From: Eledone cirrhosa
Lineage: Eukaryota
DNA length: 64,000 bases
NCBI GenBank assembly: GCA_964016885.1
Contig: OZ024743.1
Span: forward strand, 55,676,001-55,740,000
Reading direction: 5' to 3'
Shown piece by piece: positions 51,325-61,743 of the stretch. The notes below the pieces were generated by a model that saw only the letters and a program-made list of their open reading frames with translations, was not told the origin of the DNA and made no database searches. Numbering within the stretch: position 1 is the stretch's first letter; the number at the start of each line of letters is the position of its first letter. A program made the translations under genes and the position numbers.

Positions 51325-52789
51325 TATATAGTTATAGAGGTATTTATTTACGCTTTAATTTATATTTTTAATTATCGTGTCTATAGTCTGCCTTTCATAG
51401 GTTATAGATTCCATACACTGGTGGTTTTTCCCTGTTTTGTTGATAGCGCATTGTATCTCTCTCTCTAGTGTGTTACCTTTTCAACATATTGTATTTTAAA
51501 GAGTTCAGGATTTCTTCTCCTTTGAGCACATTATTTACAGGGAACGGCGAGAGTCTATGGCTACGTTAATTTATCGTTATATATATATATATATATATAT
51601 ATATATAATATATATATATATATAATATATATATATATATATAATATATATATATATATATATATATATATATATATATATATATATATATATATATATA
51701 TATATATATATATATATATATATATATATAGTATTAGTTAGTTATACTATTTATGGTTATGTAAATACAAAACCTTATGCAGTTATAAGTATTTTACACA
51801 CACCCTAAATAGTGGTAGGCAGTAATGTATTACTACCTTATTACCAGTAAGTTAAGTAGCTCAATGTAAAAATATCAGATGATTTACAGAGCAGTTATAT
51901 TCTTTAATTTAGAATCCTCGCTCATCATCTATAATTTCCATTTGTGGCACCTTACGATGGGTTAATCCACCATAATAATATGATCACCTTCAGCATAACT
52001 TAATTAAACTACTCTATAGTTAATACACTTTGTGCTTTAAAAATTTCTCTTGGAGGATGCGCATCACCATAGAAATTAGGGTCTATATTGGGACACATTT
52101 TAATAGCTAGGTATAGAAACCCCAGAGTTACCTCCCCGCATGCATTAACTCCCCTTAGCCACACACACACTTCCGGGCGGTATTCAATGGCGTTTCTCGA
52201 AACGTAACAGCCTCCTGTATTGAACTAAAGAACACCAGACTACGATCTCTAATTGGATTGTCGTGGATTATGTGAAGGGCATATAATCGAAAAATACACT
52301 CCCCTGACCATGAAAATGCCGAAGTACATGAAATACTTGACTTCCCTGCGCTGTGCATCTCCAATACTTTTAACACTTTTAATGCTTGCACTATTTTTAA
52401 TGCTTATAATATTTCTCCACACACAGACTATATCAATCATATAAAGAATTTGCCACCAGATCTACCAACCTAACACTCTTGTTTACCTACCTAAGTGCCT
52501 CTACCACACATATCTCTCTGCCACACTATATAAACAAGACGCACATGCGTGCCACACATATAACATTTCCACTATATAACCGCTTATCTTCATGTTGTAT
52601 TTTAACCTGTATTTTTGATTTTTGATTGTACCTCTTAATATAAATGTAATCTCGAAGTGTGTACTGCCACTCTAAATTCTGCAATGAATGTTGACCCACA
52701 ATGTTTGAATATGTATCAATGTTTGAATATGTATCGGTATGTCTCTCGGCTGAAAAGGAGGTCATATAACTGTCCATGCATTAATAAAT

Positions 52790-52836
52790 TGCTCCGAAGA
52801 ATCCAAACCTCGGTTTGGAGGAAACAGCTGTAAGCA
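52790..52836 (+). ncRNA. Minimal type I hammerhead, core CCGAAGA (U4C), palindromic stem III
   Basis: Stem I TGCT/AGCA; stem II TCCAAAC/GTTTGGA; GAAA; ACAGCTGT palindrome; GUA site after 52832; ~40 nt upstream of a (TA)n tract. Confidence 0.7.
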
Positions 52837-52972
52837 CAATAATGTTTTGAACAGTTCTTTGATTCTTATATTTCATATATATATATATATATATATATGT
52901 GTGTGTGTGTGTGTGTGTGTGTGTGTATTACTTCAAAATATTAATAAATATAGACATTCATATGATCAAATA

Positions 52973-53038
52973 TATTTTATTATACATATTTCAGAGGTAC
53001 TGAGCTATTTCAACAGTACGTCCTCATCAGATAAAATA
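52973..53038 (-). ncRNA. Type I hammerhead ribozyme (mirror copy in the left arm of family B)
   Basis: Reverse complement of 53139-53204. Confidence 0.8.
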
Positions 53039-53138
53039 AGTTAATGCCTGACATACCTTGACTATGTTGGTTAGAATTCAGTCATGCCATGACTGAAATA
53101 TAATCATCAACATAGTCAAGGTATGTCAGGCATCAACT

Positions 53139-53204
53139 TATTTTATCTGATGAGGACGTACTGTTGAAATAGCTCAGTACCTCTGAAATATGTATAATAA
53201 AATA
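53139..53204 (+). ncRNA. Type I hammerhead ribozyme, canonical CUGAUGA core
   Basis: Stem I TATTTTAT/ATAAAATA; stem II GGA-C-GTACTG/CAGTAC-C-TCT; GAAA; 2-bp stem III with AUGU loop; AUA site after 53196. Confidence 0.82.
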
Positions 53205-53357
53205 TATTTGATCATATGAATGTCTATATTTATTAATATTTTGAAGTAATATTAATAACTCCAGAAAACCTACGTGTGGAGTGCTTCTAATCTATTGTGA
53301 AACTTTATTCATTGAACCTTGTTAAACTTTTAATTATATATATATGTATATGTATAT

Positions 53358-53712
53358 GCGCGGGGACATAGAAATAGTCGGGCTGGATACTCGATCGTGC
53401 GGTTAAACCACTGGGAATGAAGGACCCCTAGCTTTTGTCAGGGCATTCTTCTATGAAAAAGGCAACTCAGGAAACTCGGATAACTCCGACATAAAACCTG
53501 CGGCTCAGTAGTTACCGATAGTGTTGTTCTTTTCTTCTTTTCGGTTTATAGCTACTGTCGCTCAGAGAGTGGGATTGGCTCAGTGCACAGTCTTTCCTCA
53601 CTTTAAAAAATATCTTCACGCACAGGCATTGCACGATAGAATTAATTAATAATTATTAATAATGGTATATCGTGCAATGGCTATACTCGATAATGAGGGG
53701 GCAGCCATCATA
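53358..53712 (+). mobile_element. Diverged relative of the RTE-derived 49722 element, with a different 3' end
   Basis: Colinear motifs TAGC.TTTGTCA.GG, AACCTGC, TTCTTTT, AGAGAGTGGGA.TG, TCACT.TAAAA and CACAGGCATTGC; 3' hairpin CATTGCACGATA/TATCGTGCAATG; end GAGGGGGCAGCCATCAT. Confidence 0.6.
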
Positions 53713-53957
53713 TATGTATGTATGTATGTGTCTATTGGTGTATGTATGTATGTATGTATGTATGTATGTATGTATGTATGTATGTATGCATGTATGTATG
53801 TATTGCAATTCATAATTGTTAAATTACGTTAATCCCCCGGCAAAAAATCAATGATTGATATTATTCATTATCTACATGAAATTACAAGCATTCATCGAAA
53901 GTAACCAGTAATAAAATCATTAATGAATGGAAATATACAATAATTGTCTCTACTTTT

Positions 53958-54313
53958 GGCACAAGGCCAGCAATTATCCCAGTGTAATACTGGTACTTTA
54001 TTTTATCGAACCTGTAAGGATGAAAGTCAAAGTTAACTTCGGCGGGATTTGAACTCAAACCGTAAAGGGCCGTAATTCTATGTTGCAAAATATGGCGTCC
54101 GACCCTCTTTAATAATGGTTTCTTATATAGGCACAAGGCCAGCAATTTGGGGGCGGGGCAAGTCGATCAAATCGACCCAGTGCATGACTGGTACTTTATT
54201 TTATTAACTCCGCAAGGATGAAAGGCAAAGTAACCTCGGCGGGATTTGAACTCAGCTCATAAATGGACGTAACTCTATACTGCAAATATGGCGTCCGACC
54301 CTCTTCAATAATG
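53958..54313 (-). mobile_element. Two tandem SINE copies
   Basis: GGCACAAGGCCAGCAATT at 53958 and 54130; the minus strand carries a B-box-like GAGTTCAAATCCCGCCGA and CTTTCATCCTT. Confidence 0.75.
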
Positions 54314-54894
54314 AAAGTGTTGTTCCCTTTTTCGTTTCCAAGTAATCGTAATGAATCTTCACTTTCTACGAACACAGAATATGAGTGACTAAACTCTAGT
54401 TATGCTGTTAATATCACTACAGTTGCTATATTTCCTATTTTACACTTTACTTTTATTTTACTTGTACTTGTGGCGGCGTTTACCTGCGTTGTGTTGAGCC
54501 GGCTCTATCGAAGGAGTTCACGGTGTAAGTTCATTTCAGTGGAGTTTCTTCGGACGATTGGCTTCACAAACGGTGCTCAGCCGAAATTATATGCACGTTA
54601 GGATAGTGCAATCCAAACATTGCATCGGTTATAGCGCCGATCTCTCGCTTTCAGACTCAACCCAATTTGGGGGATCCACTGCTGTGACGGGGACAGATGA
54701 GAGGGAGTTTGGTCGGCAGAGGTGATAAACACAACCTATTTGGGCCATTTTGTAGGCCAGCAGAAGCACACCCCATACCCAGCTCAGTCATACCGACCCT
54801 ACGCACCTTCCTATTATACACGTGAAAACATTCTCTCCAAGCAAATACTGTTGAAGATTTATTCTCGGTCTAACCTACCATATAGCTAACTCTG

Positions 54895-60137: not shown

Positions 60138-60215
60138 TGAGTTGAGATGGAGGGTCTGTGGTTTTTCTCACATCTGAGAAGTGAGAAAAACCACAGACCC
60201 TCCATCTCAACTCAG

Positions 60216-60251
60216 CTTTTGAAAAGCAGAAGAACTGCGAAACCGGTAAAG
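60216..60251 (+). ncRNA. Minimal hammerhead with U3-A8 core (right arm of family D)
   Basis: CTT-TTGAAAA-GCAG/CTGC-GAAA-CCGG-TA|AAG; site after 60248. Confidence 0.72.
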
Positions 60252-60428
60252 GAACCAAATAAATATATATATTTAAAAAAAAAAAAAAATTAAAAAAAAT
60301 AAGACTTCAGTTGCATTTTCGATTTCATCTCTTTTTCTTTATACTTTCACTCGTGTAGGACACCTCGGTTATTTTTCATTTTGTAAAAAAAACCTCACTT
60401 TCTAATATATATATATATTTTTAGCCGA

Positions 60429-61065
60429 TATAAACATGAGAAGAAAGAATAATACTGCGTGGTTTGCACATGGGTTACATATGATAAAAATAGTCCTTCG
60501 TCAGTGATTTTCCAACCATCATTGGTATATCATCGCATTAAAAATCAGATACCTCAGGTTGGTGCGAGCAATAACTAAAAAAAGTTATTGGTACCAGAAT
60601 TCGCGTAAGGCGAGGGGGACAAGTAAACAACATAGAAGGATAAAAGCAAACCGAAGATAGGAAAATAAACAAGCAACATGGTTGTCCTGTCAGCATAAAC
60701 TGGGTGGATTTCATGAGCGAGAGAGGTACAGACCGTGTTGATGTGTATGAGATGTGAGCAAGAAGAGACCCACACAAGCCAAACGGGAGGAAGTAAGAAG
60801 GGGAGAAACAGAGAGTGAATGAGTGGAAGTGTGAGGAAGAGGTCAGTCGAGAGAAAGTATAACTGACAGAGGTGGCGAAAGAAGGTGAGAGAAACAGAGA
60901 GAGCGGGGAAGCAGTAAGAGAGAAACAGACAAATGCAGCCGAGGTAATTATATATAAAAAACATAAGAAGAAAGAAGAATACTGCGTGGTTTGCACATGG
61001 GTTACATATGATAAAAATAGTCCTTCGTCAGTGATTTTCCAACCATCATTGGTATTTCATCGCAT
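60429..61065 (-). mobile_element. Family F relative (527-nt monomer, ~110-bp terminal redundancy)
   Basis: AATACTGCGTGG...CATCGCAT at 60451-60538 and 60978-61065; homologous to the 59107 element (TTGCTCGCACCAACC, ATCACTGAYGAAGGAC). Confidence 0.8.
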
Positions 61066-61169
61066 ATATATATATATATATATATATATATATGTATATA
61101 TATATATATATATATATATATATATATATATATATATATATATATATATATATATATATATATATATAT

Positions 61170-61349
61170 GTTAAGGAACCAGATGGACCATAACGCACCA
61201 AAGTACTCAATACTTAGGGTAGTAGAGTGGGTAATAGGAACGAGTAGGACCCCGACGGCTGACCTCAAGCCGTTTCGACGGCTAATTCTGGACTGGATTA
61301 GCCGTCGAAAAGGCTTGAGCTTAGCCGTCGGGGTCTTACTCGTTCCTAT
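61170..61349 (-). mobile_element. Fold-back element, family E
   Basis: Hairpin 61234-61349 plus a 64-nt tail; (TA)n flanks. Confidence 0.85.
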
Positions 61350-61378
61350 ATATATATATATATATATATATATATATA

Positions 61379-61485
61379 TGAAAAAAATGGGGAGAAGAAT
61401 ACTGCATGGTTGCACATGGATAACATGTTATAAAATGAGTCCCTCATCAGTGATTTGCCAACGATCATTGGTATTTCATTGCATT
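61379..61485 (-). mobile_element. Family F short fragment (conserved core only)
   Basis: Minus strand GAAATACCAATGATCGTTGGCAAATCACTGATGAGGGAC...CATGTGCAACCATGCAGTATTC. Confidence 0.7.
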
Positions 61486-61553
61486 ATATATATATATATA
61501 TATATATATATATATATATATATATATATATATATATATATATATATATATAT

Positions 61554-61743
61554 ATAGGAACCAGTAAGACCCCGACAGCTGAGCTCAAGCCGTTTCGACG
61601 GCTAATTCTGGGAATTAGCCGTCGAAACGGCTTGAGCTCAGCTGTCGGGGTCTTACTGGTTCCTATTACCCACTCTACTACCTCAAGTATTGAGTACTTT
61701 GGTGCGTTATGGTCCACCTGGTTCCTTACCACATTTCCTTCGT
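61554..61743 (+). mobile_element. Fold-back element, family E (perfect 55-bp arms, 3-nt loop, 77-nt tail)
   Basis: Arms 61554-61608 and 61612-61666; contains the hammerhead 3' half GTC-GAAA-CGGCT-TGAGCTC-AGCTG-TC|GGGGTC. Confidence 0.88.

Follow-up and report, generated by a model that had tools for sequence, protein, structure and literature searches.

A 64,000-nt stretch of Eledone cirrhosa DNA (hereafter the window; GenBank assembly GCA_964016885.1, contig OZ024743.1, forward-strand positions 55,676,001 to 55,740,000) contains seven repeats, elements A to G, in which the sense copy runs past an inverted arm by an unpaired overhang. These overhangs are almost certainly the one-sided tails of Penelope-like elements (PLEs). 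In elements A and C the tail is the element's own first 60-85 nt, which come after the pseudo-long terminal repeat (pseudo-LTR) in a tandem transcript. A small bulged hairpin lies just inside the tail, intact in four of the five families represented (A, B, C and D/F/G) and degenerate in the fifth (E). Tail length is best explained as a short lead-in plus this hairpin plus one of two spacers, hence lengths that cluster near 80 nt without being constant. The architecture of PLEs is already known; judged from sequence, what appears to be new here is the combination of tails about twice the published length and a shared bulged hairpin.

Seven tails and the elements that carry them

The original prediction listed seven overhangs of near-constant length (~80 nt) in unrelated families and proposed a length ruler acting from the target-primed junction. 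We re-measured the overhangs by self-alignment of the window with microsatellites masked, and inspected each end. All seven positions and lengths were confirmed. Every arm ends in TAT or ATA, which pairs with the flanking repeat over 3-4 nt in six elements and over 1 nt in B, where the flank is (TG)n. This TA microhomology at the arm end leaves the tail ends ambiguous by 1-4 nt. All seven tail ends adjoin (TA)n. Elements A and C are the two in which a templated tail was assessed, and both hold an internal copy of it (positions are those of the window):

50623..50961, minus strand: element A, inverted arm, the reverse complement of 51161-51494, with 4-nt microhomology to the direct copy
50958..51039, plus strand: element A, internal tail copy of 82 nt, with 90% identity to the terminal tail; tail base 1 is where the direct copy begins
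50965..50989, plus strand: element A, hairpin of the internal copy, the only match in the window to the strict Hydra-derived descriptor (see below)
51247..51324, plus strand: element A, long-stemmed motif resembling a type I hammerhead, recognised by eye and missed by scans
51495..51577, plus strand: element A, terminal tail of 83 nt, with hairpin 51503-51527, ending 50 nt beyond the hairpin at (TA)n
55492..55794, minus strand: element C, inverted arm, equivalent to 57015-57317, with hammerhead core at 55609
55795..56029, plus strand: element C, 5'-truncated direct pseudo-LTR with hammerhead core at 55912, identical to the inverted arm at 235/235 nt
56030..56110, plus strand: element C, internal tail copy that continues into the body, with hairpin 56039-56074
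56111..57014, plus strand: element C, body of 904 nt with no intact open reading frame (ORF) and no Pfam match in the three sense frames
57015..57317, plus strand: element C, 3' pseudo-LTR with hammerhead core at 57200 and three differences from the inverted arm
57318..57398, plus strand: element C, terminal tail of 80-81 nt, whose hairpin has one breaking change, ending 36 nt beyond the hairpin

Element A amounts to an inverted arm plus 1.15 units of 537 nt. Element C reads, in order, inverted pseudo-LTR, truncated direct pseudo-LTR, tail, body, pseudo-LTR, tail. Its internal and terminal tails are identical at 78 of 81 positions, its three pseudo-LTR copies differ at 3 positions only, and its inverted arm exceeds the direct copy beside it by 68 nt. 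The two direct hammerheads of C are spaced by one 1288-nt unit, without two whole units being present, and the element may be non-autonomous or decayed. Target-site duplication or capture of flanking DNA was ruled out as a source of the overhangs, given that tails recur inside A and C. The remaining five elements are stubs and have no internal copy of the tail:

52926..53251, unstranded: element B, palindromic arms with a type I hammerhead in both (cores at 53147 plus and 53030 minus)
53252..53334, plus strand: element B, tail of 83 nt, with hairpin 53258-53282 (inner stem of only 2 bp), ending 52 nt beyond the hairpin
57439..57515, minus strand: element D, tail of 77 nt, family D/F/G, with hairpin 57487-57510, ending 48 nt beyond the hairpin
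57516..57613, unstranded: element D, short diverged arms of ~50 nt each
60014..60343, unstranded: element E, palindromic arms with a degenerate hammerhead (core at 60133 minus, on the inverted arm)
60344..60404, plus strand: element E, tail of 61 nt, with a degenerate hairpin 60349-60369 (7/8 pairs, failing the descriptor), ending 35 nt beyond it
61170..61233, minus strand: element F, tail of 64 nt, family D/F/G, with hairpin 61205-61228, ending 35 nt beyond the hairpin
61234..61350, unstranded: element F, arms
61554..61666, unstranded: element G, arms
61667..61743, plus strand: element G, tail of 77 nt, with hairpin 61672-61695, ending 48 nt beyond the hairpin

The two arms of B are near identical, bar a cluster of changes and a 3-nt gap near the hairpin tip (53075-53105). 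The inversion points of D, F and G (57565-57580, 61285-61297 and 61605-61612) fall within ~15 nt of the same family position; therefore truncation was non-random here, or the stub itself was copied.

The tails are less independent than had been claimed. D/G tails are identical at 63/77 positions and F/G tails at 60/64, which rules out seven independent families; the other 18 of the 21 tail pairs are no more alike than shuffles. The seven overhangs are thus five families (A, B, C, E and D/F/G), and the idea that they come from unrelated families was not borne out, as a single family comprises D, F and G, and the hairpin motif is common to A, B, C and D/F/G. The near-constant length holds in part. 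Five of the seven copies measure 77-83 nt, whereas the other two measure 61 and 64 nt, and F and G lie 13 nt apart within a single family. Counted per family, four are at 77-83 nt and one (E) at 61 nt, with both 64 and 77 nt found in D/F/G. The chance of four out of five values falling in a 7-nt band is 0.003, 0.009 or 0.057 under uniform priors of 30-150, 40-120 and 55-95 nt, assuming independent families; these figures are weakened because the families are probably linked by descent.

The elements are best explained as 5'-truncated or non-autonomous insertions of endonuclease-bearing (EN+) PLEs, piled up in (TA)n tracts. Pseudo-LTRs in partial tandem lie next to an inverted 5'-truncated copy (C has all three copies), a type I hammerhead is present in the pseudo-LTR, and a one-sided tail templated by the sequence after the pseudo-LTR is found in A and C. 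A hammerhead scan of 45000-62045 gave 7 matches, 5 of them in B and C, and 20 shuffles gave 2 in total; beyond the scan, E has a degenerate hammerhead and A one recognised by eye, and the D/F/G stubs, too short to hold it, have none. Rfam returned no hammerhead family among 140 matches (mainly microRNA-hairpin and microsatellite matches), and no match of any kind at the gathering score. Terminal repeats of a DNA transposon or miniature inverted-repeat transposable element were ruled out, given one-sided arms and the presence of hammerheads.

The source clade is probably Hydra or Hydra-like, as read from non-coding sequence. Insertion in (TA)n and a canonical hammerhead, both Hydra-clade traits, are present. 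Of the Naiad-clade traits, an N-terminal endonuclease and no canonical hammerhead, the latter is not matched, since B and C have canonical-type hammerheads; by eye, the ends of Octopus Naiad differ from those of the window elements. Two points weigh against a firm assignment: (TA)n insertion and the canonical hammerhead also occur in Neptune, so they are not diagnostic for the Hydra clade (PMC8557442), and the window contains no coding sequence from which the RT (reverse transcriptase) and endonuclease motifs that define the Hydra clade (RWK, DKT, a CxCX5C linker and no CCHH) could be read. Pfam gave nothing above cut-off for 14 translations, including 12 frames of four element bodies, with no telomerase-like RT or GIY-YIG endonuclease left in the window. 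Pattern scans gave 0 matches in metagenome contigs, viral contigs and prokaryote genomes.

Comparison with known systems, here and below based on the available parts of each cited source, places the window tails close to published EN+ PLEs. These have an inverted 5'-truncated 5' copy, partial tandem pseudo-LTRs and a tail at one end equal to the sequence after the pseudo-LTR, and the layout of element C is that of Pen2a_Av. The optional one-sided tail is 30-40 bp (Craig et al. 2021, PMC8557442; Arkhipova et al. 2013, PMC3846280; PMC11167929), with 31 bp in Pen2a_Av (PMC3846280). In contrast, all seven window tails measure 61-83 nt, about twice that length (a usual rather than a defining value), carry the shared hairpin and belong to elements with no ORF left. 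The original prediction was therefore right to see tails of Penelope type that are longer than published ones. The Hydra clade (PMC8557442) shares the (TA)n target, a canonical type I hammerhead near the 3' end and occurrence in Octopus, whereas the available part of that paper gives no tail length or hairpin for the clade, and its supplement contains none of six 14-nt words from the window families. Poseidon of Anolis carolinensis (PAc; Frangieh et al. 2024, PMC11167929) also has an AT-rich target, a hammerhead upstream of the tail and two genomic end positions. It differs in apparently belonging to another clade; the window tail is longer, with the hairpin between the two ends. Non-LTR retrozymes, which are non-autonomous PLE derivatives (bioRxiv 10.64898/2026.07.22.740005), are likewise non-coding units with a type I hammerhead, similar in size to A (537 nt) and smaller than C (1288 nt). 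On the other hand, they are defined by at least two tandem units in a row, every one with a complete hammerhead, and the window elements comprise 1-1.3 units and also have inverted arms and tails; that paper never uses the word 'tail'.

The tail hairpin and the spacing around it

The hairpin motif was first noticed in Hydra-clade consensi in the supplement of PMC8557442 and then recognised in the window tails. It consists of an outer stem RYTC/GAGY, a variable inner stem and a 2-nt bulge on the 3' side, followed by RC. The outer stem opens with a G-C pair in A and with A-U in B, C and D/F/G, and the inner stems pair despite differing among families. Pairs were counted by script, because MAFFT failed to align the hairpins in register. 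A relaxed descriptor of this layout, run over 37900-64000, found 7 matches among 34 GAGYRC sites, all of them in tails (A twice, B, C internal, D, F and G), against a mean of 0.315 and a maximum of 2 in 200 shuffles. The match is specific to bulge size: 2 nt gives 7 matches, other sizes 0-2. A strict descriptor, which fits the Hydra consensi, has one match in the 64 kb, 7 nt into tail A, and 2 of 1000 shuffles of 37900-64000 match it. Folding z-scores of -1.6 to -2.9 lend modest support in A, B, D, F and G. Among the published Hydra-clade sequences, inspection by eye shows the strict motif in three of six consensi (at the 3' end in Hydra-2_Amil and Hydra-2_Ajap, at the 5' start in Hydra-1_Ajap), and Hydra-1_Crog has an imperfect version at its 3' end.

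Several observations count against this picture. The relaxed descriptor was written post hoc, with the tails already seen, and tail A was known before the strict form was written. The relaxed form also misses two of the nine tail copies (C terminal, by one breaking change, and E, with 7/8 pairs and an altered 3' word). Folding z-scores are weak, at -0.44 and 0.21 in C and 0.5 in E, and when the complete tails of C, E, F and G are folded, the minimum-energy structure lacks the hairpin. By eye it was not found in two of the six consensi, Hydra-1_Amil and Hydra-1_Obim, and a relaxed match lies in the 3' untranslated region of Naiad_Mmer, far from its end; the relaxed form therefore has chance matches. 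We nonetheless consider it very probable that the hairpin is kept by selection. No Hydra-clade tail hairpin was found in the available parts of the literature searched, which give only 30-40-bp tails (PMC11167929, PMC8557442, PMC3846280, PMC8969392, PMC4209133 and bioRxiv 10.64898/2026.07.22.740005); longer Neptune or Hydra tails may stand in Arkhipova 2006, Repbase entries or supplementary figures.

From arm end to hairpin start is 5-9 nt in all nine tail copies, the degenerate hairpins of E and C terminal included. The spacer between the hairpin and the (TA)n junction measures 50 nt in A, 52 nt in B and 48 nt in both D and G, and 36 nt in C and 35 nt in both E and F. Element C reaches 81 nt through a hairpin that is 11-12 nt longer combined with a short spacer. 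F and G show both spacer classes in one family, with a shared arm end and junctions 13 nt apart. The two classes (35-36 versus 48-52 nt) rest on seven copies only and are a lead, not a result; the three published consensi with the strict motif, which continue 27, 28 and 45 nt past the hairpin by eye, do not match these classes. That the hairpin positions the ends seems likely to us. The claim that length is limited stands insofar as something geometric restricts the tail, whereas a pure ruler from the target-primed junction is not supported. Offsets set by family-specific motifs had been named as what would speak against a ruler; this is partly the case, in that the offsets appear tied to a motif, although one common to families.

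Published tables for 24 Hydra-clade families give the distance from hammerhead to consensus 3' end: 10 lie at 26-43, 11 at 81-149 and the others at 59, 66 and 351. This count leaves out Penelope-18_HMa (hammerhead listed only near the 5' end) and two families with none listed. The medians of the two groups are 74.5 apart. In B and C, the arm end is 47-49 and the tail end 130 from the hammerhead. Our reading is that curators ended some Hydra consensi at the arm end (site 1, below) and others at the tail end (site 2); no such statement was found in the available part of PMC8557442.

One unit of C (55795-57082), and thus a single family, was compared with four public sequencing runs. In run X1, summed contig depth drops from 236k just ahead of the arm end to 148k and 143k across the tail, then to 25k in the bin that contains the tail end and 6k beyond, so that the tail stands at 0.61 of peak depth and the body at 0.014. 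A step model places the falls at 56012 and 56102, against expected positions of 56029 and 56110. These depths fit two fixed ends in the C family at 43-nt resolution (the bin width), at which the spacers are not separable; X1 has no library on record, and its contig depth does not stand for copy number. In X9, one independent locus departs from the C sequence at 56023, where a run of TA takes over. The partners of five listed inversion joints in other copies are separated by 22-204 nt. Peaks of read ends in two runs of restriction site-associated DNA sequencing (RAD-seq), at 55868, 55871, 56083, 56088, 56836 and 57015, were rejected as restriction ends (all 6 of the listed places are at AATT sites), and RAD depth was left unused for tail length; run X5 gave 2 records only.

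Twin priming, fold-back and other possible ways to set the ends

We lean towards two-site priming around a bound hairpin. An RT-GIY-YIG protein would bind the tail hairpin, seen here as a motif only. The bound protein would nick both (TA)n strands and prime reverse transcription at two sites flanking the hairpin. Site 1, 5-9 nt upstream, would lie at the TAT/ATA able to pair with the target and would produce the inverted arm, which has no tail. The tail-bearing end would come from site 2, located 35-36 or 48-52 nt downstream, and the two products would be joined by microhomology. The hairpin may be the signal that sets where copying starts. If, as we think most likely, two priming sites flank the protein-bound hairpin, the offset depends on a motif instead of on distance alone.

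In LINE-1 twin priming, the inverted segment ends where the direct segment begins, the join is made by microhomology and the second priming site is variable. Element A is alike in its inversion/direct boundary and microhomology, whereas here the second site would be fixed, beside the hairpin. Its direct copy starts at tail base 1, right after site 1 of the upstream unit, and its inverted arm is the stretch ending at site 1; as twin priming predicts such a start, A leans to that mechanism. Element C points the same way. Its inverted arm lacks the three variants of the 3' pseudo-LTR and matches the adjacent 5' copy and the family majority (at two of the three differences, ~97% of reads in the public runs agree with the inverted arm). 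Because the arm is identical to the 5' copy and has none of the 3' variants, the stretch lying 81 nt from the junction is unlikely to have been its template, unless the variants arose later. There is also a biochemical parallel. In vitro, the Poseidon PLE cuts and extends both strands and starts reverse transcription at two internal sites in a stem loop, and the interval between them is the tail (PMC11167929).

The strongest rival is fold-back with a motif-anchored stop. That is, the complementary DNA (cDNA) from site 2 would snap back, and the copy strand would halt at site 1, against the bound hairpin or an RNA:DNA hybrid, and join the target via TAT/ATA. Both mechanisms leave the same type of junction and tie the arm end to the motif, and the A junction with its 4-nt microhomology fits fold-back as well. 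The junctions of B, D, E, F and G (5/7) are near-symmetric, a feature that PMC3846280 interprets as self-priming, and the few differences among the pseudo-LTR copies of C imply one template lineage; these points favour fold-back. Fold-back sits less well with a direct copy in A that begins exactly at tail base 1, with the C arm being 68 nt longer than its neighbour and free of three 3' variants (two of which are minority letters, though they may be later mutations), and with the two RT start sites demonstrated for a relative (PMC11167929). We judge fold-back unlikely overall, and only slightly favour site 1 as a priming site rather than a fold-back stop.

A pure distance ruler, in which the second arm ends ~80 nt from the target-primed junction whatever the sequence, was the original prediction. 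It draws on the five copies and four families at 77-83 nt, on their low chance probability under uniform priors and on C staying at 81 nt despite its longer hairpin. Yet C gets there with the short spacer class, and its arm matches the 5' copy rather than the 3' pseudo-LTR at that distance. Moreover, E and F fall short at 61 and 64 nt, F and G differ in their junctions while sharing an arm end, arms end 5-9 nt ahead of the hairpin with lengths in two classes when measured from it, and the long Hydra-clade group spreads over 81-149 from the hammerhead. A pure ruler is accordingly very unlikely. We give slightly less credence again to the hairpin having no positional role, with the tail simply the inherited 5' end of related families, the hairpin serving promoter, translation or packaging functions, and short tails arising by later deletions. 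The tail does equal the element's 5' start in A, C and Hydra-1_Ajap, where such signals are expected, and F is an older copy (arms 87% alike). However, the 5-9-nt lead-in is held although primary sequence outside the motif is unrelated, and the distance from hairpin to tail end is 35-36 nt in C, E and F, each of a different family, which random deletions would be unlikely to produce.

Extending two-site priming beyond the window is more speculative. Hydra-type Penelope proteins could recognise their RNA through this hairpin throughout the clade, in cephalopods as in corals and sea cucumbers. A bound dimer would prime both target strands, at one site 5-9 nt upstream and another ~35 or 50 nt downstream; the tail would then mark where the ribonucleoprotein had sat on the genome, and twin priming at a fixed site would have produced the inverted arm. 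We rather doubt this reading in full.

Neighbouring repeats and relevance to Penelope-like elements

Other repeats surround the seven elements. Positions 1-35637 are a tandem array of ~671 copies of a 53-bp unit (94% matches); a degenerate TGT-rich array comes next and extends to 37858. Family H is present as direct repeats at 59104-59985 (plus strand), 60419-61063 and 61380-61484 (both minus strand). It has a half-core hammerhead (GAAA before CTGAYGA) that resembles Octopus Naiad ends by eye, no inverted arm and no tail hairpin, and the 3' ends of its copies differ by ~46-69 nt; it was left out of the tail count, and pooling it would widen the length spread. Two further hammerhead-bearing PLE-like remnants without inverted arms lie on the plus strand at 51731-52874 and 57701-58200 (cores at 52794 and 57757), the former ending 38 nt after stem I at (TA)n and resembling a tail-less site-1 end. 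A decayed end of a non-LTR retrotransposon ORF at 48580-49550 (minus strand) has the look of a restriction-like endonuclease by eye, with no Pfam match. Another repeat is present as two inverted copies (95-98%) at 49962-50368 and 58264-58670, ending in TATG/TA tracts, with a diverged third copy at 53478-53632 that has a hairpin at 53624-53682. Three copies of a short interspersed repeat, probably an octopus SINE (short interspersed nuclear element), stand at 38648-38746, 53978-54117 and 54176-54313.

The origin of PLE inverted arms and one-sided tails is called an open question in PMC8557442 and PMC11167929. Should the hairpin play no part in positioning, these would only be longer versions of a known tail. 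Otherwise, a small hairpin kept across families that cannot be aligned, at a fixed distance from one end, is a minimal candidate for an RNA signal and offers a direct test of twin priming versus fold-back. It would also allow Hydra-type elements, and derivatives of them without an ORF, to be recognised from non-coding sequence.

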